Counted from the first letter of the whole stretch, positions 13,937 to 30,969 are shown. The stretch: 63,839 bases of DNA, filler included, from Pirum gemmata (GCA_002812295.1; 13 parts of 13 records of this genome joined end to end with filler, not necessarily neighbours in it); one strand, 5' to 3'. Notes: a model not told the origin generated them from the letters alone. Numbers and translations are program-made.

Positions 13937-14408
13937 CTAGTTTGTTTTTTGGTTAGTTTTACTTTTAGCCTTCTCCAACAAAACATTAAACTCATTGACA
14001 AAGTGTTCACAAATCCTTTCAACACTCCCTTCAACAACACCCGACTCTGCAAAAGCACCAAAGTAAATTCGACCATTATAACTTAACAATCCCATACTTA
14101 AGCCACCACGACTTCCACAAGGAATAAATGGAGCAAACGATTCCACTTCATGACCTGCAATATTAATTTCGCAAGCAGGACCAGGAACATTAGTTAAAAT
14201 AGTTTGGCATTTTGTTGCATAAAAATTCATCATTAAACCATCAAACATTGTAAATACTTTCACAAACAAAGTCCAACTCCATAAAAACTCAAACCCAAAG
14301 TACATTAAAACCGGAACTGGTGAATATTTTAAGTAATTCATATTTTTGTGGATACTTTCCATACGTTCAAGTGGATCAGCAATAGTAGTAGGCATAAAGG
14401 TGAACGCC
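13937..14408 (-). CDS. Terminal exon of a WS/DGAT (wax ester synthase/diacylglycerol acyltransferase) gene, C-terminal domain; upstream exons lie off the contig
   Basis: TILTNVPGP...IAGHEVESFAPF...GLSMGLLSYNGRIYFGAFAE matches the WS_DGAT_C signature (SNVPGP, SYxG). An acceptor ttgttttag precedes 14408, and the TAG stop is at 13937. Confidence 0.88.
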
Positions 14409-17279
14409 CTAAAACAAACCAAAAAAAAAACAACAGTTAAGGTAAGGGTAAGGGTAAGGGTTAGGGTTAGGGTAAGGGTAAGCGTTAAGGTTAGGGTTAA
14501 GGTTAGGGTTAGGGTTANNNNNNNNNNNNNNNNNNNNNNNNNNNNNNNNNNNNNNNNNNNNTTAATTAATTAANNNNNNNNNNNNNNNNNNNNNNNNNNN
14601 NNNNNNNNNNNNNNNNNAGGTCTAGCTAGCTAGAATGTCTAGCTAGCTACAGTCTACACTACAGTAGCTATCAATATTGTAACTAGCTAGTAGCTAGAGC
14701 TAGCTAGTAGCTATCATACTAGCTAGCTAGTCTCTATCGGTCAGACGGGCTCATATGAGCCCATTTTTCACTATTGCTCATTGCTTAGCTCATTGCTTGA
14801 GCTCATTGCTCTCTACTACAGTACTACTAGACTAGCTCTAGCTAGCTAGCTAGCTAGCTGGTAAGTTTTTATGACTATCTGATATCATAGTTTATGCTAT
14901 CATATCGATACTACTATCTGATAAAAGCTATTGGTATCTATGCTTTCGTAGAGTTTTTGGTAGGTATTATAGTGTGTAGTCTATATCGATATTATTCTGG
15001 AATCTCAGATAGTCTCTTAGTTAGAGTTCTCTTTTCAGATAGTATCATACTATCTGGATACTAGCTATCGTCTATTTCATTACAGTTGTCCCCTCACTCT
15101 TTAATTTGGTACTGTTTAAGTGTATAATTGAACTTGTTTACAAAATAAAATATTATGTATAAGATACCAAATTAATTAAAACATGTCTGATAGTTTAGCC
15201 ATAATAATAATTTGGTATGTTTATTTCAGTTTTTGAACTGGGCGACACTATTGAAAAACTATTGAAAAACACAATAGCTAGAGGAGGGGTGAGAACTCTT
15301 ATGGCGAACTTTTTTGACCGAGGCACAAAGTAAATGTTGTTCGCCTGTTTCTCCTTACCATATTTAGTATTTGTAATTATTTATTTAGTAGCTACTTATT
15401 TAAGTAGTTACTTTAAAAAGAGTTTATTATATTATTTATAGTAACTTTAGGCAAATTTCTGGAAGTTCGCCGGTCCGAGCATCCAATTGGCAAGATGACG
15501 TCATCTCATCCCTCCTATGATAACTGTATGATAGTAAAATAAGTATATATTTTTTTAATAGATTTGAAATTTTGAAACATTATGATAAAAAAAAAAAAGT
15601 AGGAAAAAAGTAGGACTTTAATTAGAAAAAAAGTAGGACGTTTTTAAAAAGGTTTGATACATTATACAGTACATACCAGCCATCTGATAGACCAGTTGCG
15701 AGAAGTGTTGCGAGCTACTATCAATAGCTAGCGAGCACTAGCTCGTAGTAGAGGCAAGAGCTAGTAGTAGCTATCAAATATTATGATAGTATCAATAGCT
15801 ACTAGCTAGCTAGCTAGAAGAGCAGACAAGCTAGCTGGGTGCTTTTCATTTATTTTGTCACTCTGAATATTAATTTGGTTTGTTATAATATTTAAGTTGA
15901 CATTTTTAAATAAATAAATAGATGGTATAATATACCAAATTAAATGAAATGGATTTATATAGTATTAATTTGGTATTTTTTATTGTATATTTTATGATGA
16001 CAAAAACAACTGAAAGGCACGATATTTTTAACTCTACTGATAGTCTACTGATAGTCTACTCTAACTTTTCGATCTAACATCCTCCCTCGATAGCTACTAT
16101 GATACTCTAGCTAGTAGCTAGCTAGCTAGGCCCCCTTCTACGTATTATTATGAAAAATACAACAAACCTCTATAACAAAAAAAACCAAATGACAATCAAA
16201 TCATTTAATAAAGTATTAAGAACCTATACCAAAGTATTATGAAACAAATCAACAAATTACAACTTTAATTTATAATTAACTATATAACTGTAACCTGCTG
16301 CACCTCCTTTTTCATAAGGAAAACAGAAACTTTTTTTTTTATCATATTATCATAGTGTATGTAAAAAACAAAAACTCCACATAAATTTTACTCGAAAGTC
16401 GGCCCAAACAACCATAATAATCATTACCGGTAGACTAATTATAATTATAATTACAATTTCTTCTTTGAAGTCTTATTAATATTCAACTGGAACTGGTGAG
16501 GGTCACAAACACACCCCTGCCACTAAAAACTTAAAACCTATCATTCTCTAAAACTTCAACAATTCCTTTCCAACTCTTATATGGAATCAAAATAATATTA
16601 TCGAACCGAATCACCAACTGTAATAAAACCTTACATTAAATCTAACCCTCATGCCCTTATCAATCTTTTGTTGTTCACTCTAATAAAATTACTAATAATT
16701 ATTTCTAAATCACAATTCACCTTTATCCTTATCAAAACTAACACAACCGTTAATTAAAATTAGAATTATCACTAACTACTCTGCATTTAAACCTCTGTTT
16801 TTAATTAATAAAAAGCATATAAAATGGTACCGGTGTATACCCTAAATCGTTGTGTAGCTCACAATTAATCACATGGATATAATTATCAACAATTACATCC
16901 CATTCTAAACCTGTTTCGATGTACTTTTTTCTTTTAAAACATCCTTAATCTTCCGTATTAATACTAGCCCATTGCTTTCATGGTGATCATGATTCTCTTT
17001 TAATTTTAAATGAATAGGCAACGTTTTAATTAACAACTACATTTTGCGACAAACAATACTCAAACAATACATAATCAGGATTAAATTCCAGAACAAAAAA
17101 ATAAAGATCACTTCGCTAAAGTATAAATTACAAGAGAAGGAACCAATTGCAACACTATAGCTATATAGCTATTGTACATTGGTTAGTTAACTAAACTCTT
17201 CTAACAGCTCTTCTAACCCAAATTTTTAAAGAACTCGCAAAGAACTATTTCAATTTAAATAAGTAAAATTTAAATTTAA

Positions 17280-20500: not shown

Positions 20501-20741
20501 AAATAGGTTTTTTCTTTTCCATTAATACACTCTTACCTAAGCAACCATCTCACATATTCGCTACCAACATATTGTGCATTTCATTTATTTTGCCACTCTG
20601 AATATTTATTTGGTAGTTTATAACCTTTAAATTGACATTTTTTAAATGAATAAATAACTAATAAAATATACCGAATTAAATAAAATTAATTTATATTATA
20701 ATAATTTCGTACTTTTTATTGTATATTTTATGATACCAAAA

Positions 20742-22173: not shown

Positions 22174-22398
22174 GTAGGGAGATGCGGGAAAAACCATCGA
22201 ATCGAGACTAGTTCGAAACTTTCGAAATTTTTCGATCTAATTTTAAGTATTGACTCACTTTTGATTTCATTAAAAATTCTTAGAAATTTCATTGGAAAAA
22301 TTTGAAACTCGAAAAAAAAGATTATCATTTCAAAATTGTCACTATTTAATAGTTAGAATCGAGCTATTAGATTCGATTATGTGTTCCCGTATCTCCTA
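22174..22398. mobile_element. MITE family E (~225 bp), locally clustered
   Basis: TIR TAGG(G)AGATGCGGGAAAA / TTCCCGTATCTCCTA. Copies near 20247-20480 (reversed), 21892-22125 and 23658-23872; a decayed copy near 53350. Confidence 0.9.
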
Positions 22399-22608
22399 GT
22401 CTACGTTTATAGTGTGTACCCGTAATATTAAAAAGTTATGCGAGTTTGACCCTAACCCTAACCCTAACCCTAACCCTAACCCTAACCCTAACCCTAACCC
22501 TAACCCTAACTTGAATCATATCGAAATACCTATATGATCTCTACATTGGTTGTATACTAAATATACAACTTTGTCGCATATTTATTTAAACATATACAAC
22601 TGCTACTG

Positions 22609-22697
<89 letters not shown>

Positions 22698-22896
22698 NTA
22701 ATAGTTAGAATCGAGCTATTAGATTCGATTATGTGTTCCCGTATCTCCTAGTCTACGTTTATAGTGTGTACCCGTAATATTAAAAAGTTATGCGAGTTTG
22801 ACCCTAACCCTAACCCTAACCCTAACCCTAACCCTAACCCTAACCCTAACCCTAACCCTAACTTGAATCATATCGAAATACCTATATGATCTCTAC

Positions 22897-22960
22897 ATTG
22901 GTTGTATACTAAATATACAACTTTGTCGCATATTTATTTAAACATATACAACTGCTACTG

Positions 22961-23023
<63 letters not shown>

Positions 23024-23230: not shown

Positions 23231-24518
23231 ATAACCCAACGTCAGCGATGACGGTCATTCGTGGTCTTTTTTTCTGGCGGATGCTCTTTTAACAGTACTT
23301 ATCGTGCTTTTCAGTTGTTTTGTCATCATAAAATATACAATGTCAACTTAAATATTATAACCAACCAAATAAATATTCAGAGTGACAAAATAAACGAAAA
23401 GCACTATAACAAAAAACATAAAATAATTCGACTCGAAGCTAAAAGCTATTTTCAAATTTTCAAAAATGATGATATCAACCTCTGAGAGATGCGGGAAAAG
23501 GAAAACCCCTATTGGCTCTTTCCCCCCCTTTTTTTTTTCTTATTTTCAAAATCAATTTTTATTGGTTAAAAACAAGATAGGATCTTGTTTGAAAAAAATT
23601 CTTTATTTTGATTAACTGCGAAAATATGCGCAATTTTTGAAACAAAAGTTTTTTTAGTAAGGAGATGAGGGAAAAACCATCGAATCGAGACTAGTTCGAA
23701 ACTTTCGAAATTTTTCGATCTAATTTTTTAAGTGTTGACTCACTATTGATTTCATTAAAAAATTCTTGGAAATTTCATAGAAAAAACTTGAACAGAATAC
23801 CGTTTCAAAATTGTCAATATATAATATTTAGGATTGAGCTGTTTGATTCGATTTGTTTTCCCGTATCTCCTAGTCTGCGCATTTTTAAACAGTAAAAAAA
23901 ACCTTAGAAGTCTGCGCACTTTTAAATTAAAAACCTTCGTAGATATAAAACTAATTTTTTATAAAATTTTCGAGCATTTTAGCTTTTTCGAGCTAAATTT
24001 TTTTCGCGCTTTTTTTTTAAATATAACACGTGTAAGAATAGATATTACAGTGTAGATTGATTCGAAAAAAAAACAAAAAACCTTTTTTCGCACTTTTTTT
24101 AAGAATATATATATATACTATAGTGTAAATCGATTCGAAAAAAAAAAAAGTCTAATTAATAGTATGACAAAAACTATTTGTAATCATAATTTATCGAGAT
24201 CATTATCGATCGAATTTTCGAGCTAATAATCTTAACATAACTAGCAGTTACAGCTACTAGGTTGATTTGTTTCAGTTTTTTAATTTTGGGTTTGTATTTT
24301 TACTTAAAATTTATTATTATTATTATTATNNNNNNNNNNNNNNNNNNNNNNNNNNNNNNNNNNNNNNNNNNNNTTAATTAATTAANNNNNNNNNNNNNNN
24401 NNNNNNNNNNNNNNNNNNNNNNNNNNNNNTAATAATAATAATAATAATAATAATATTTATTAATAATAATAACTAAAGGGAAGGTTACTATGAATCTCAA
24501 AATCAAAAAGATGATATA

Positions 24519-26078
24519 ATGTCATGGAAAGACAGAATGCTCTATAGAAACTTGCTATCTAGAAGGGCTAGAGATAATGTTAAAACTGCTAAAGTACCTG
24601 TCCCTGTATTTAATAATCATAATAGAACTACAGCTGAAGTCCCAGAGACTAGAATAGTCTATTCTGTACCCGAAGATTCTTTACCTACCCTTGGCAAGTA
24701 TCAAACTCCAAGGAACAATAGAGTTATAAAAACTATTGTAAAAAATAAGAAATATGCTCAAAACAAAAACTTAGAAGAAGCTATGAAAATCGAGCCTAAG
24801 GCTGGTGTTATAGTAGACCCCGACTACCCTAGTCTAGACCAACTCTACCCTGGGAAAAGAGGGGCACAGAGAAGGTCAATAGTAAGGGTTATGTATAAGG
24901 CGTTAACAGGTGCCAAGGAGCCTTTGGGCTTGAACCTTAACCACTTTGCTAGCTTACTACCAACTTTGGCTATGAACAAAGCAAGACCTAGTCAGGCTGA
25001 TAATGATGCCATGGCTAGCGAAAAAGAGGCCCTGGAAAAGAGGTTGGAATGGTTTCTTCATGAGAAAGGGAAGACTAACTCGAATCCAAAACATTATTCT
25101 AACCAATTAGAAGGCTTCATAACAAACAGCCAGAAGTATGTTGAAGACAAAATCAAACAAAAACGATCACAGTTAAAAATCGAAAAAGTTTTATTTACTA
25201 TTTTTAAACATGCTTCGAGTCAAGCACAAAGTACAATCAACGAAAATCAAGCCGGTGCTAATAGGTTTATATATGAAGCTCAAAACTCGAATATGAAAAT
25301 TAGTCTGGATAATATTGATTTCGAGCACAGTTTCAAACCGGCTCAATACAAAAAATTCAAAGATAACTGGATTCCATTGGATAAAATAAATGAAAAGTAT
25401 GAAAGTAAAGTACAAGACTTGAAAAAATTACCTAATAAAGAGGTTTTTGCACTCCTACTGCTAGGCATTTATCTAGCTGCAGCCAATCAGAAGCAATTAG
25501 AGGCTGACAGCGGTAAAGATTTTCAAGGTGTTATTGGTTCAGCTCTTCGAGAAGAACCCGAGCACATCCAATGGGTGAGGCAAGTTTCACATAGCAAAAA
25601 GGAAGTGAACCAAATAAGTTATAACGAAATCCTTATAGAGAATAGAAAAACTCCTGGTTATAACCCATATTTCCATTTTAAGACAAATGATAACCTTAAA
25701 AGGATATTGAGTTTTTTGGACCCAGCAAAAAAATCAAGTGATTCTAGATCAACAAAAAGGGTAACTAGAGCTCAAAATCAATCAGAAGAAGGTCAAGATG
25801 ATACAGAAACAGTTCAAGATAAAGATAAAAAAAAATATAGTCTTCCGGGTTATAATCAAAATTTTTTTGAAAAAAAAATGACGTTAAAACAAGCTTTTAA
25901 AATTTTATTTAACAAATCTGATTTGGGATGGCAAACCTTTAGAAAAATTGTTATTAATAATCAATATTTTAAAACACCACGCTCATTCGCTCAAATTGAT
26001 AATTATTCGAGAATTCATAATGGGCATGAAGGTAGTGTTGAGATTAAAAATTATATTGTACCAGGAATGGTCAATTAA
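24519..26078 (+). CDS. Tyrosine recombinase/integrase, 519 aa, resembling the OLV11-like YRs of PLVs and virophages
   Basis: Catalytic set in canonical order: R344 (GSALRE), K377 (ENRKT), Q-x-x-R475 (WQTFRK, the HxxR position), H503 (NGH), Y512. Also NWIPLDKI, LLLLGIY and LKQAFKILFNK. The frame is open from 24477 behind a possible acceptor (taaag), so an upstream exon is possible. Confidence 0.8.
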   Translation: MSWKDRMLYRNLLSRRARDNVKTAKVPVPVFNNHNRTTAEVPETRIVYSVPEDSLPTLGKYQTPRNNRVIKTIVKNKKYAQNKNLEEAMKIEPKAGVIVDPDYPSLDQLYPGKRGAQRRSIVRVMYKALTGAKEPLGLNLNHFASLLPTLAMNKARPSQADNDAMASEKEALEKRLEWFLHEKGKTNSNPKHYSNQLEGFITNSQKYVEDKIKQKRSQLKIEKVLFTIFKHASSQAQSTINENQAGANRFIYEAQNSNMKISLDNIDFEHSFKPAQYKKFKDNWIPLDKINEKYESKVQDLKKLPNKEVFALLLLGIYLAAANQKQLEADSGKDFQGVIGSALREEPEHIQWVRQVSHSKKEVNQISYNEILIENRKTPGYNPYFHFKTNDNLKRILSFLDPAKKSSDSRSTKRVTRAQNQSEEGQDDTETVQDKDKKKYSLPGYNQNFFEKKMTLKQAFKILFNKSDLGWQTFRKIVINNQYFKTPRSFAQIDNYSRIHNGHEGSVEIKNYIVPGMVN

Positions 26079-26102
26079 AAGTTAAATTTTTTTATTATTA
26101 TT

Positions 26103-26396
26103 TTAAATATCTAGCTGTTCAAAATAAGACTCTAACATAGCAGTATTATTAATATTTTCGTATTTTTCACACAGTTCCAAACAGGTGAACAAATAGTCCC
26201 TAAACTCAACAATTAAACTATGATTCAAATTAAAGGCCCTTACCATATGTTTATAGGTACTATAAGTACCATCAGCTTTATTGGTAGCATACCAGCAGTT
26301 GATAGCTAATTTTCTTAAGTGACATTCTATTTCTACCCGATCTGGGATATCCAAATACTTTTTTAATTTATACCAAGTGTTACCACTAACATTGAA
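26103..26396 (-). CDS. Hypothetical protein (~97-99 aa), convergent with the YR; true start uncertain
   Basis: The frame is open from 26396 (FNVSGNTWYKLKKYLDIPDRVEIECHLRK...) directly after a (TTAGGG) tract ending in TTAG. It stops 24 nt from the YR stop. Composition is normal and complex. Confidence 0.6.
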   Translation of the reverse strand, partial: FNVSGNTWYKLKKYLDIPDRVEIECHLRKLAINCWYATNKADGTYSTYKHMVRAFNLNHSLIVEFRDYLFTCLELCEKYENINNTAMLESYFEQLDI

Positions 26397-26445
26397 CTAA
26401 CCCTAACCCTAACCCTAACCCTAACCCTGCCTACCTAGAATAAAA

Positions 26446-26619
26446 ATGTCACTATTGAGAGATTACCAATTAAAAAATTTAAAGTGTAAACAATGTAAAA
26501 AACGACTTTTCTACCACCAATTAAAACCTTGTCATAGCTGTCTAAAACATCATTGTAATTATTGTTTAACACCCCATAATATGTGTATGTTATGTGCATT
26601 CTACTTAACTTTTAATTAA
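26446..26619 (+). CDS. 57-aa zinc-finger protein with four CxxC pairs (not in the ORF track)
   Basis: MSLLRDYQLKNLKCKQCKKRLFYHQLKPCHSCLKHHCNYCLTPHNMCMLCAFYLTFN*, starting in an aaaaATG context. Eight Cys in four CxxC pairs suggest two Zn sites. Confidence 0.72.
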   Translation: MSLLRDYQLKNLKCKQCKKRLFYHQLKPCHSCLKHHCNYCLTPHNMCMLCAFYLTFN

Positions 26620-26805
26620 GTAGAACAGACATGATTTATTTTGAGAATAAAAGAATAATAATAATAATAATAGCAGACCCAAGCAGACCAAAGCAGACCA
26701 CCACCCCCTTCTGTAGACCCCAGTGGAGCCAGTGAAGGCTAAGGGAAAGGGGAGAGGTATTAGTAGGTATTAGTATGAACAAACAAAGGGGTATGGGGCT
26801 TAGTA

Positions 26806-26836
<31 letters not shown>

Positions 26837-26892
26837 TTTAATGACAACAAAAATAATAATAATAATAATAATAAAATAATTATATGTTATTT

Positions 26893-27090
26893 TTAGAACC
26901 TCCTATCAACCACCCCTTTATAGTAACCTTCCCTATCATGGTATAGAGCAATGGCAATGTCTTTGTGGTATTTATGAACATAAGTACCTTGTCCAAAATT
27001 AGCATTATAGATATGTCTTAATCGGTCTCTCCCTGTTTTAGTGAGAGAGAGAGATTGTAAGTCTAATTGGTATTTTCGACCAAACAACAT
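26893..27090 (-). CDS. 65-aa hypothetical protein of the virus-like cassette
   Basis: ATG-started ORF with complex composition, bounded by (AAT)n tracts. Its upstream leader is duplicated at 26630-26730. Confidence 0.55.
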   Translation of the reverse strand: MLFGRKYQLDLQSLSLTKTGRDRLRHIYNANFGQGTYVHKYHKDIAIALYHDREGYYKGVVDRRF

Positions 27091-27110
27091 AATTTATTTT
27101 GAGAATAAAA

Positions 27111-27148
<38 letters not shown>

Positions 27149-27321
27149 TACCTTTTTAAACCCCTATAACAAGCAGACCAAGCAGACCAAAGCAGACGCC
27201 AGTGAAGGCAGTGAAGGCAGTGAAGAGAAGGAGTAAAATGTACATTATTACGGTTACCTTTTAAAAAAATTTTGTGTCTAGATTTTTTTTTTTTATTATT
27301 TTAGACTATCTATTTTCGACC

Positions 27322-27950
27322 GTACCGATTCGGACCCAAATTAGCTAAAAAGGTACCAATTCGGACCCAAATTAGCTAAAAGGTACCGTAATTTGGTAGG
27401 TAACTGTACTTTTGTACAAGTTGACCGTAATACTGTACAAGTTGACCGTAATATGCTCAAAGTAGCCGTAATATGCTCAAAGTAGCCGTAATAGACCTCT
27501 ATGTACAAAGTAGCCGTAATACTGTACATGTATTAATTTATTACCAAATATAGTAATATATGGTAGAAGGAGTTTTATAAATATGAGAATGAGATTTTTA
27601 TAGTCCAGATTGAATTTTCAGGGTGCTTCTTATTTCAAGGCTATACCAAGGGTGTTTTAGAGAATTTTTATTTCAAGGCAGCTACAAGGGTGTTTTAGAC
27701 ATTAAAAATTTTTTATTTCAAGGCAGCTACAGGGGTGTTTTAGTTGATCATGTGACTTTGAAAACTCTCAAGACTCTGAACCTAGGTGATCACGTGACTT
27801 AGTGACTCTGAACCCAGGTGATCACGTGACTTGGCGCGGACTTGTGTTGTGTTCTAAATAAAGTTGTGTTGTGTCTACATTTAGTTGTGTTGTAAAATAT
27901 TAATATGGTGTGTTGAGTTCCAAATATGTATAGTGTTGTGCGAACGAGAC
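27322..27950. repeat. Layered short tandem repeats (element terminus or origin-like)
   Basis: 2 x ~31 nt gtacc(g/a)attcggacccaaattagctaaaa; about 5 x ~20 nt units with ccgtaata; 3 x tatttcaaggc...gggtgttttag; 3 x tgatca(c/t)gtgactt; several gttgtgttgt. Confidence 0.85.
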
Positions 27951-27991
27951 TGATCAAGTTATCTATATATATATATATAGGGATATATATA

Positions 27992-28614
27992 TATATAAAC
28001 AGACTTAAAGTGTACATCGATTTTACAAATGTGAAATTTTTCTAAGTATTTTTTTTACCAAAATTGTTTAAATCCTTACCATATTTCAAGGTACTTTTTG
28101 CCAAATTTGCTAAAAATATCGAGCGGCCAGGGGGCATAACAAATGTTGATCAAATGTGATCTAATTGGGTTGATGTATTAACGATGATAANATAACACCG
28201 ATACTTACGTCAACAATGACGACAAATTTTCGTTAAGTACGTCACCACAAATAAATTAATATCATTGTAATGAATTTAATATCATTGTAATGAATTTAAT
28301 ATCATTGATAATGAATTTAATATCATTGATAATGAATTTTAATATCATTGATAATGAATTTAATATCATTGATAATGATACTGGCAATAATAATACATTA
28401 CATAGTCAATCACGATTATCATCGTTAATACATCAACCCAATTAGATCACATTTGATCAACATTTGTTATGCCCCCTGGCCGCTCGATATTTTTAGCAAA
28501 TTTGGCAAAAAGTACCTTGAAATATGGTAAGGATTTAAACAATTTTGGTAAAAAAAATACTTAGAAAAATTTCACATTTGTAAAATCGATGTACACTTTA
28601 AGTCTGTTTATATA
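27992..28614. mobile_element. Foldback/MITE with ~199-bp inverted arms
   Basis: 27992-28190 is the reverse complement of 28416-28614. The flanks are TA, and the spacer holds about 6 copies of aatatcattg(a)taatgaattt. One N at 28191. Confidence 0.8.
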
Positions 28615-29388
28615 ATGAACTTTTTATGAATCAATTTTTTATTCATTTTTTATAAATAGTGACAAAATATTGTTTTATTGTTTTAAATTGGCAGCCAAAA
28701 ACTACTATGTGTATAAAACGGTCACTGAAGCTAGTTATAATAGCCTTGTTTTAAGGGTAATTTTGTACCACTTCGGCATAGAAAAGCTCTAGACTAGTGA
28801 CAAAAGCAATGAAGATGTTGTCTGTAACCCTAACCCTTAACCTTGTTTTAAGGGTGAAAGCAATGAAAGCAATGAAGATGTTACTGATGTATGTTACTGA
28901 TTGTTAATTTTTCTATATTTTTTTTTTACCCTATGTTCAAGGTACTTTAGACCCCCATTTTCGCATAGCAAAACGCGTACAAAGGTATAGCAAATATGAC
29001 GTAATTATGACGTCATTGAATAATGTATATAGTCTATAGCCTGTTCGCTAGACTAAAAAAATACAATGGTATGTATGGCTTATGTGAGACAGGTGTAACA
29101 AAACTTGGATTTTAAGCCAATAAATTATGATTATAGACTATTATTCATCTGAAGCTCTAAAAAGGCAATCTCATATTTATAAAAGTCGATCTTTTGTTTG
29201 TGACATTTTTTTTTTTGTTTNNNNNNNNNNNNNNNNNNNNNNNNNNNNNNNNNNNNNNNNNNNNTTAATTAATTAANNNNNNNNNNNNNNNNNNNNNNNN
29301 NNNNNNNNNNNNNNNNNNNNCCAAAAACCTAAAACCAAAAACCAAAAACCAAAAACCAAAAAAACATATAATCAAAAAAAAAAAAAAA

Positions 29389-29883
29389 ATGTTTATAGAA
29401 ATGTATTCTGAAGCCCAAATCCAATGTTCGGGAAAAACTAAATTTGGTGAACGTTGTAAAAAGATGGCTACATCAAAATACTGCTTCCAACATCAAAAAC
29501 TTATTGTTAAGAAAAAGCTACCTAACTCTAAATTCAAAAAAAATTTAACTAAAACAGCAACAACAACAGCAACAACTACCACAACAAGTCCAGTTCTTAG
29601 ACAATATTCATTACCTAATTATACTATGCCTTATACTATGTCATCACCAACGTTATCATTACCCCAACCACAACCACAACCACAAACGATATCAACATTT
29701 TCTCCATTTGAGATTCAGCCAAGTCTTTTACTTCATTCAGTTTCAATTGGAAGTGTGGATAGTTATAATTATAATATAAGTATTGGTAGTGATAGCGAAT
29801 GTGAAGAAGAAACTGATCTTATGCATATGAACATACTAAATGATGTCAACTTTTTTAACTTAAACAATATCCTTTCCAATTAA
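29389..29883 (+). CDS. 164-aa protein with an N-terminal DUF5763-like C-x8-C-x8-C-x2-H zinc motif and a low-complexity S/T/P tail
   Basis: QCSGKTKFGERCKKMATSKYCFQH. The ATG follows a poly-A leader, and the ORF is intact and intronless. Confidence 0.7.
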   Translation: MFIEMYSEAQIQCSGKTKFGERCKKMATSKYCFQHQKLIVKKKLPNSKFKKNLTKTATTTATTTTTSPVLRQYSLPNYTMPYTMSSPTLSLPQPQPQPQTISTFSPFEIQPSLLLHSVSIGSVDSYNYNISIGSDSECEEETDLMHMNILNDVNFFNLNNILSN

Positions 29884-30116
29884 AATAATTAAAAAAAAAA
29901 AAAAAAAAACAAAAAAAAAATATTAGAAAAAAATACAAAAAAACAAAAAAGAAAAAAAAAATTAAGTTCAGTCACATTCAATCAATAAGCACTTTAATAT
30001 ATTATGATAATATATAATAAGGATATAGTAACAGCTATACTAGATTCACAAAACCAACACGGTGTAAACTCCTCTATGACTCTCTCTACTATTATAAGTT
30101 TTATTATATAATATTA

Positions 30117-30304
30117 TCGTGCTTTTCAGTTATTTTGTCGTCATAAAATATACAATAAATAGTACCAAATTAATACAAAATAAATCCATTTCATTTAATT
30201 TGGTATATTTTATTATACATTTATTTATTTTTAAAATTATCAATTTAAATACTATAAACAACCAAATAAATATTCGGAGTGATAAAATAAATGAAAAGCA
30301 CAAT
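30117..30304. mobile_element. MITE family A (~190 bp), representative copy; the most abundant repeat in the window
   Basis: TIRs T(C/T)GTGCTTTTCA(G/T)TTATTTT with TA flanks. Other copies near 5789, 12316, 12588, 13163, 15839, 20572, 23302, 34183, 34510, 35495, 38805, 42762, 54540, 56006, 57996 and 63672. Confidence 0.9.
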
Positions 30305-30969
30305 ACATTGATAATACATCCTAATGATGTATTGTTTATAATATTATAATATTATATTTTATATTATACTATGATAGTTAGAGGACGTGACCGTAGTTTG
30401 TCCATTCTATTTATAAAATTTAATACTGAATTTAAAATGTAAATACTAGTATATATAAATAGATATTTTTGTAATAAAAATATCTAAATATAGATATATC
30501 CACTGAACCTATCATTCCTTTTATAGCATTTAGAACAGGCTCCTGGCTTACCCAATTATACTTTGCTTTTTAAAAAAATTCGAGTTTTCAAGCCTATGTA
30601 CTAATTCTAAATAAGTTCGAAAATTTTAAGCTAACAGTTTTTTAAGTATTCAAGTATATTTGTTTATTTATTTATAATCCCGAAAAAATGGAAAAAATAA
30701 TTTTCGAACAAGGGATTTCGGCTTTTTTTTCGAAAGCAGAAACTCGTGCTTTCAAACTCGAGCGGAATTGGGAGAGGATCAAAGACATAGACCCAAAGTA
30801 ACCCAACCTGTGCACAATACTGTACGACTCTTTGCGATAGTCTATTGGCCAATTATTTTACCTATATATGTATATATTCCAAATTGGTTCTTTCAGATTG
30901 CACAAAGAGTCAAAGACTCTTGGAGACTGAGTCTGGGCCTGGGGCTCCCTGGGGCTTTGGCTTGCTTGG

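Follow-up and report, generated by a model that had tools for sequence, protein, structure and literature searches.

A probable OLV11-related tyrosine recombinase, encoded intact at the likely end of a virus-derived element in Pirum gemmata

Does an intact recombinase gene on a short contig of the Pirum gemmata assembly (GCA_002812295.1) mark one end of a virus that has integrated into the genome of this organism? A first-pass annotation had read the locus as one end of a recently active endogenous Polinton-like virus (PLV) or as a non-autonomous tyrosine recombinase (YR) element. The window, i.e. the whole stretch of 63,839 nucleotides that was analysed, consists of 13 size-sorted contigs of 4.7-5.4 kb, which are unlinked and were concatenated via 12 artificial N44-TTAATTAATTAA-N44 linkers with stop codons (for example 24330-24429 and 29221-29320), so that DNA elsewhere in the window is uninformative about the recombinase locus. 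The contig in question (24430-29220, 4.8 kb) starts 89 bp upstream of a 519-codon open reading frame (ORF). With moderate confidence, we regard it as carrying the terminal part of a virus-derived element that was mobilised by its recombinase and has integrated, either a PLV or a capsid-less derivative. What was retained from the first reading is a tyrosine recombinase with kinship to the OLV11-like group, lying in a compact cassette that resembles the end of a mobile element, whereas PLV identity, integration and recent activity went beyond the evidence. The gene itself is real and intact; it encodes a divergent form of an integrase type already known and lies where a virus-derived element probably ends.

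The ORF (24519-26078, plus strand) runs for 519 amino acids from its ATG, free of stops and frameshifts as had been annotated, and a contig from a public sequencing run (X1, record 1), which may be the source of this DNA, covers positions 24476-26388 with 0 differences. The annotated R-K-QxxR-H-Y residue set was also recovered (R344, K377, Q472-x-x-R475, H503 and Y512), and the catalytic R-K-(H)xxR-H/W-Y set is present in order and spacing. The predicted catalytic domain comprises residues 282-519 (25362-26078), with R344 as the presumed Arg-I, K377, Q472, R475, H503 and the nucleophile Y512, and has inserts at about residues 326-343 and 401-440. It is preceded by a predicted helical core-binding domain, residues 165-281 (25011-25361), which is helical in the structure model and aligns to the homologue P0001 described below (42/117 aligned positions identical) and to the OLV11-like N-terminal domain of viral proteins, in which Y193 is matched. 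The N-terminal extension, residues 1-164 (24519-25010), had no family match and is missing from P0001 and from the viral relatives. The first-pass annotation had left some 270 N-terminal residues unrecognised; this holds for residues 1-164, whereas residues 165-281 align with the DNA-binding domain of the family, and the unexplained part comes to 164 residues, M165 being the point at which the N-terminus of the family proteins aligns. A DUF29 match (residues 167-242, E 0.0007, under the cut-off) was set aside as a helical-bundle artefact.

The closest relatives of the protein were searched in several collections. When 1.84 billion representatives were scanned in full with HMMER, a single match was obtained, P0001, which is a P. 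gemmata gene model of 348 amino acids (Pgem_evm2s6834, EukProt) with 44% identity over residues 167-514 (E 5e-64). Unlike the 519-aa query, P0001 starts at the equivalent of M165; it shares the catalytic residues and both inserts, keeps R344, K377, R475, H503 and Y512, and carries Glu at the position of Gln472. Identity is highest at the catalytic C-terminus (29/43 for residues 471-514, versus the value given above for residues 165-281). Word-seeded protein searches gave nothing for the query and P0001 alone for the pair, no relative was found at any locus in the viral, metagenome and prokaryote collections scanned, a family-specific pattern scan yielded 9 loci with 0 relatives, and neither the PDB sequence searches nor Rfam gave a match. 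In the ESM Atlas, the query and P0001 scored 0.96 and 0.97, respectively, to the same three Preplasmiviricota clusters (312-332 aa), in one of which 16% of the members carry PF00589. Cryptons, DIRS/Ngaro elements, Starship captains and protelomerases belong to the same catalytic fold superfamily. Their Pfam families were absent from the Pfam scans and, for the query as for P0001, from the 30 closest Atlas clusters; no YR-family Pfam match was obtained at E <= 1, and the query was also without any relevant profile match. Crypton and Ngaro elements are mentioned in PMC12220804 and PMC8547959, the latter being, like 10.64898/2026.06.19.733378, a background source only. P. gemmata is placed among the ichthyosporeans (PMC11244446), and the sole homologue being ichthyosporean agrees with a host that is probably a single-celled relative of animals. 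No description of this two-member branch was found in the passages of the literature that were searched.

The pair was compared with viral recombinases fetched by motif (80 of 81 matches, plus 24 further loci). The seed set contained 69 complete proteins, or 45 after 70% clustering, 42 of which are in alignment A1, and alignment A4 contains 46 viral rows. The seeds are termed OLV11-like as their motifs match the published Yrec by eye (PMC4642659, supplement), with PF00589 detected in 5/42; A32 ATPase was not found in the one of five seed contig records that was covered. The alignment of the query to the viral proteins stays in register from M165 to the C-terminus, and the only invariant columns of the 48-row alignment are K377, R475, H503 and Y512. 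Three of these four columns had been fixed beforehand in viral rows by the seed pattern or filter, which determined the Arg and His in most of them; K377 had not, and it is therefore the freer test of conservation. An ordered motif pattern, composed after the query had been seen, matched both proteins, 24/45 viral representatives, 0/116 other ORFs and 0/20,000 shuffles of each protein. A profile of the pair ranked 87 viral recombinase ORFs over their shuffles with composition correction (p 0.013-0.025, which is optimistic as the ORFs are related). In a tree without outgroup, a stem with 4.1 changes per column separates the pair from the 46 viral proteins.

The first-pass annotation had singled out the replacement of the first His by Gln (WQTFR) as an oddity. 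This did not survive the comparison, as the HxxR position is occupied in 64 viral relatives by Ser (41), Thr (16), Asn (6) or Arg (1), and never by His (0/64). Gln is moreover described as a natural substitute at the catalytic His, and His-289 variants of Cre still recombine (PMC4381057).

Several results weigh against a virus-derived recombinase at the end of an integrated element and are given together here. The PxR box, in which Arg-I comes right after the LL..Y helix, is found in 65/70 distinct viral proteins and is missing in the query and in P0001. A hidden Markov model (HMM) of the OLV11-like catalytic domain gave 4.7 bits for the query, with 27/1988 shuffles equal or higher, and 7.9 bits for P0001 (7/1994); without composition correction these scores rose to 11.9 bits (6/1988 shuffles as high) and 17.6 bits (0/1994). 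The hhalign probabilities were 4.7% for the query and 13.9% for P0001. No recombinase family was matched in the Pfam, PHROG and NCBIfam scans of the query, and its Atlas recognition of 2194 is below the mark of 2300, above which P0001 lies with 2351. The AlphaFold model from the single sequence was unusable (pLDDT 35), while the alignment-driven model (pLDDT 68) owes its signal to the 46 viral rows and is partly circular; its fold matches are sub-threshold, none being at E <= 0.001, with a best Z of 7.5. At the level of the contig, no hallmark virus gene (capsid, ATPase or replicase) is visible on a sequence that starts 89 bp upstream of the ORF, and among the public contigs listed none bridges the junction between element and flank. 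The absence from the recombinase contig of interspersed repeats common to 11/12 other contigs speaks for an element; on the other side, the contig 43866-49275, which carries an apparent host gene, lacks them as well.

Searched against BFVD and PDB, the alignment-driven model matched Cre, Xer and topoisomerase IB with Z 6-7.5 (E > 0.001), and the top BFVD rows include Tetraselmis virus 1 and AaV. Considering all these data, the query very probably has a tyrosine recombinase fold, and kinship with the OLV11-like family is likely. As to the missing PxR box, an S-x-R-x-E-P motif is conserved in the query and P0001 about 19 residues beyond the usual site, and Arg-I has probably been displaced by an insert of about 19 residues, R344 being assigned from spacing and conservation. 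The R344-K377 spacing is 33 (viral range 9-45, median 37) and the R475-H503 spacing is 28 (viral range 24-29). K388 was rejected as the catalytic Lys, since the KT of the family aligns with K377, and K325 was disfavoured as a substitute for Arg-I, its spacing being 52 versus a viral maximum of 45. Judged from the alignment, the loss of the PxR box is a real deviation of the query, which the first-pass annotation had overlooked. In view of this loss and of the long stem, we call the query a divergent relative of the OLV11-like family and not a member of it.

The same features may also be read as signs of domestication, i.e. of a host gene derived from a viral recombinase and now encoding a DNA-binding protein or a topoisomerase-like enzyme, with its neighbours there by chance. 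The sole homologue is a eukaryotic gene model, the pair is separated from the 46 viral proteins by 4.1 substitutions per site, the PxR box is gone and the fold search places topoisomerase IB level with Cre (Z 7.5 and 7.2). In addition, host exons of 1.5 kb occur, so that the absence of introns proves little. We consider this reading improbable, as the catalytic residues are fully retained and the gene is accompanied by tightly packed small orphan ORFs, upstream motifs in common and an element-specific repeat end.

The three small ORFs annotated next to the recombinase gene were all recovered, at 26103-26396, 26446-26619 and 26893-27090. The first (minus strand) is an orphan frame of 97 codons, open from stop to stop without an ATG and convergent with the recombinase gene; it is probably a 3' exon, for which 31 formal splice models are possible. 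Another open frame (26435-26632, minus strand), antisense to the zinc-finger ORF and behind the duplicated upstream module, could be its first exon. The second (plus strand) codes for a 57-aa protein with four CxxC pairs, a predicted zinc finger with sub-threshold Pfam matches only, and the third (minus strand) is an orphan of 65 amino acids. In 2000 simulations, four CxxC pairs were never produced (0 times), 97 consecutive codons without a stop were seen 105 times and an ATG-initiated ORF of 65 amino acids was seen 293 times, the length of the latter alone being non-significant. Among the six frames, the called one had the best codon score in both the 97-codon and the 65-codon ORF, and the zinc-finger frame tied with its antisense frame. 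A (CCCTAA)5 tract, of a kind also present in host introns, is located at 26397-26428.

These genes share upstream sequences. A module of ~110 bp is duplicated within the element, with a first copy at 27087-27227 and a second at 26629-26739, both on the minus strand and containing the repeat families D3, D7 and D8; the second consists of GCAGACC repeats, an AAT tract, TCTCAAAAT and an ATG. The TCTCAAAAT motif also occurs 5' of the recombinase ATG (24495-24503, plus strand), in addition to two minus-strand starts, and 3/6 of its matches in the window are inside the element, each 5' of an ATG, which suggests a promoter-like function. A 15-bp sequence at 24477-24491 (plus strand) has an exact inverted partner at 26920-26934 (minus strand), within the 65-aa ORF. 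This pair, of which the like was found in 3/400 order-3 Markov simulations, flanks the recombinase gene and two small ORFs, and as a candidate recombinase or regulatory site it could serve for inversion or regulation.

The layered repeats of some 600 bp reported to follow these ORFs correspond to six tandem arrays at 27322-27893, with periods of 31, 21, 20, 45, 32 and 21 bp. They are part of a region of layered repeats (27239-27963) with CCGTAAT seven times, TGATCA four times and CACGTG twice, and ~640 bp of iterated repeats reach as far as a (TA)n tract. CCGTAAT occurs 7 times in 721 bp of this region, compared with 4 occurrences over the 58,849 bp of the remaining contigs, and we infer that 27239-27963 is the right end of the element. 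The adjacent (TA)8-GGG-(AT)7 tract (27964-27997) is a candidate insertion site. Outside the element, the flank begins with a host repeat resembling a miniature inverted-repeat transposable element (27992-28614), with perfect inverted arms of 199 bp (I1). These arms enclose a 21-bp tandem array and have TA runs on either side, and the depth of the repeat is high and variable in X1 and in X2, a run from a second study of the same organism.

The junction between this repeat end and the flank was looked for in the public contigs. One X1 contig covers 27157-27865 unchanged and variant contigs start past 27865; many variant contigs were found over 27992-28614 in both X1 and X2, and the element is joined to host-type repeats by the assembly alone. 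This leaves room for a virus that was present in the culture in free or episomal form and was mis-assembled from short reads onto host repeats at (TA)n, and indeed the X1 contigs of the element show 0 differences over 1.9 kb and the listed pieces end at 27865, short of the junction. The cassette contains host-type microsatellites, however, and X2 has two pieces identical to the element (224 and 151 bp), and we regard this as the least probable explanation. The depth of the X1 contigs (658 over the repeat end 27157-27865 versus 828 over the ORF) is not a copy number; that the former is not double the latter is a weak hint against a long perfect terminal inverted repeat, only one end being on the contig. 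In X2, 375 bp of the element were present at a depth of 2-2.5, and the depth of the flank repeats is 29-189 times lower there than in X1. This could reflect an amplification in X1 but was not taken as evidence, contig depth being no copy number.

At the other side, the contig starts with a (TAA)n microsatellite (24430-24472), at which the X1 contig breaks off too. AAT tracts resembling it are also found upstream of other small genes of the cassette, and the element probably continues leftward past it. The host DNA is AT-rich (~28% GC), uses the standard code and has TTAGGG tracts within apparent introns. PLVs that carry a recombinase are frequent in the genomes of protists and poorly assembled from short reads (PMC10120064), PLVs are described as having terminal recombinase genes and as integrating by YR without target-site duplication (PMC4642659, PMC12220804), PLV capsid genes have been reported in Sphaeroforma arctica (PMC7805220), and Amoebidium contains adintoviruses as well as YR-rich repeats, the latter unrelated-looking (PMC11244446).

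The element might instead be a capsid-less YR DNA transposon of a few kb, Crypton-like in behaviour, with a PLV-type integrase and small accessory genes only. AAT and TTAGGG tracts in host style occur in the cassette, one ORF probably needs splicing, the only relative outside the locus is eukaryotic, with none in the collections scanned above, and polisuviruses include capsid-less modules for replication and integration (10.64898/2026.10.13.758929). Against this, a contig ending 89 bp upstream of the ORF cannot demonstrate that capsid genes are absent, and the closest Atlas clusters to which taxa are assigned are viral; on balance we find such a transposon rather unlikely. A more elaborate proposal, on which we would place slightly less weight still, is a family of capsid-less transposons of unicellular animal relatives, which would have arisen from a virophage or PLV integrase independently of Cryptons and would combine a rebuilt active site (a 19-residue loop displacing Arg-I, and Gln or Glu for His) with an iterated asymmetric end, a (TA)n target and possibly self-inversion via the 15-bp sites.

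The viral matches also raise the question whether the cassette could be the integration end of an endogenous giant virus, or belong to a large YR-rich repeat like the Plavaka-flanked clusters of Amoebidium. OLV11-like genes are known in giant viruses (PMC4642659), GVMAG records are among the seeds and Tetraselmis virus 1 and AaV are in the top BFVD rows; in endogenous viral elements (EVEs) of phaeoviruses the YR gene is terminal and imperfect direct repeats form the right end (PMC13236599), and Amoebidium holds giant-virus EVEs and YR-rich repeats (PMC11244446). Yet in the latter study the other assemblies of ichthyosporeans that were screened, among them that of P. gemmata, yielded no reliable insertion of a giant virus. 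The nearest Atlas clusters with taxa are moreover Preplasmiviricota, and this origin appears quite improbable.

In recombinases of the Cre/Xer type, generally, an Arg-Lys-Arg-His set activates the phosphate that is attacked by the Tyr. By analogy with these enzymes, the recombinase of a virus-derived element with its right end at 27963 would use residues 165-281 and the catalytic domain to clamp one site at either end. R344, K377, R475 and H503 would activate the scissile phosphate and Y512 would form a 3'-phosphotyrosine link (for the chemistry of Cre/Xer-type enzymes, see PMC4381057). End-to-end exchange would release an excised circle, and by the reverse reaction this circle would be inserted, without target duplication, into a short AT-rich sequence, for example (TA)n at 27964. 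Excision and reinsertion without duplication have been proposed for YREC-type PLVs (PMC4642659, PMC12220804), and recombination of the ends with reinsertion at AT-rich sites has been shown for the phaeovirus EVEs, the right ends of which also bear direct repeats (PMC13236599). The iterated CCGTAAT and TGATCA(C/T)GTGAC motifs may act as an origin of replication or as accessory sites for binding, and any genes for replication and capsid would be expected to the left of the (TAA)n break.

Other features of the window are located on contigs unlinked to the locus. According to the first-pass annotation every other transposon ORF was decayed; the only other one identified among the ORFs scanned, a transposase at 60902-62269 (plus strand) which we take to be piggyBac-like, is indeed split over three frames, the first piece matching Pfam DDE_Tnp_1_7, but it lies on another contig and so is uninformative about the recombinase locus. 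A ~190-bp interspersed repeat with 75-93% identity is present in most contigs (e.g. 15839-16030, 20569-20741 and 30108-30308), next to several other short repeat families. A tandem duplication (22345-22697 and 22699-23020), with (CCCTAA)10 and (CTA)n around a single N, is possibly an assembly artefact. As to genes, the 3' exon of a WS/DGAT acyltransferase gene was recognised at 13937-14395 on the minus strand (PF06974, E 1e-22), and a 164-aa ORF at 29389-29883 (plus strand) has a Cys/His-rich N-terminus with a weak DUF5763 match (E 0.002, under the cut-off). An orphan multi-exon gene or gene pair with TTAGGG-rich introns extends over 44256-48287 (plus strand); it had no Pfam match over threshold and includes a 370-aa ORF with a hydrophobic N-terminus and a last frame of 519 codons.

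Many protist viruses are presumed to use OLV11-like recombinases as their integrases, a role which, in the passages of the literature consulted, is predicted from sequence. The two-member branch described here points to an ichthyosporean, one of the close unicellular relatives of animals, and with an intact enzyme and a candidate end site within the same 3.5 kb, a direct test of excision is possible. If the element is capsid-less, a virus integrase would have turned into a transposase; if it is a PLV, it would add a further member to a class that is already known and very large.

Compared with the OLV11-like Yrec of PLVs, Organic Lake-group virophages, PgVV and AaV (PMC4642659), the query has the same domain layout from M165, with an N-terminal helical domain and the NW, LL..Y, KT, R[HK] and GH..Y motifs in the same order. 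It also shares a HxxR position without His, which is Ser in one published Yrec (PMC4642659, supplement), and a gene position close to the element end (PMC4642659). It differs from them by an identity of just 11-17%, by its 164-aa N-terminal extension, by the long stem of the pair outside all 46 sampled viral proteins and by a K377-R475 distance of 98 (64-96 in viral proteins), due to a second charged insert of ~35 residues. The YREC-type endogenous PLVs of protists (PMC10120064, PMC12220804) similarly combine a recombinase with small orphan genes, are fragmentary in short-read assemblies and have no clear target-site duplication; however, they are 15-30 kb in size, with a major capsid protein and replicase and often long terminal inverted repeats, whereas the 4.8-kb contig shows one end only. 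The cassette of the phaeovirus EVEs (PMC13236599) resembles the element in its terminal YR gene, the imperfect direct repeats at its right end and its AT-rich target, but it belongs to a giant virus of brown algae and has CC junctions, and the likeness is one of description.

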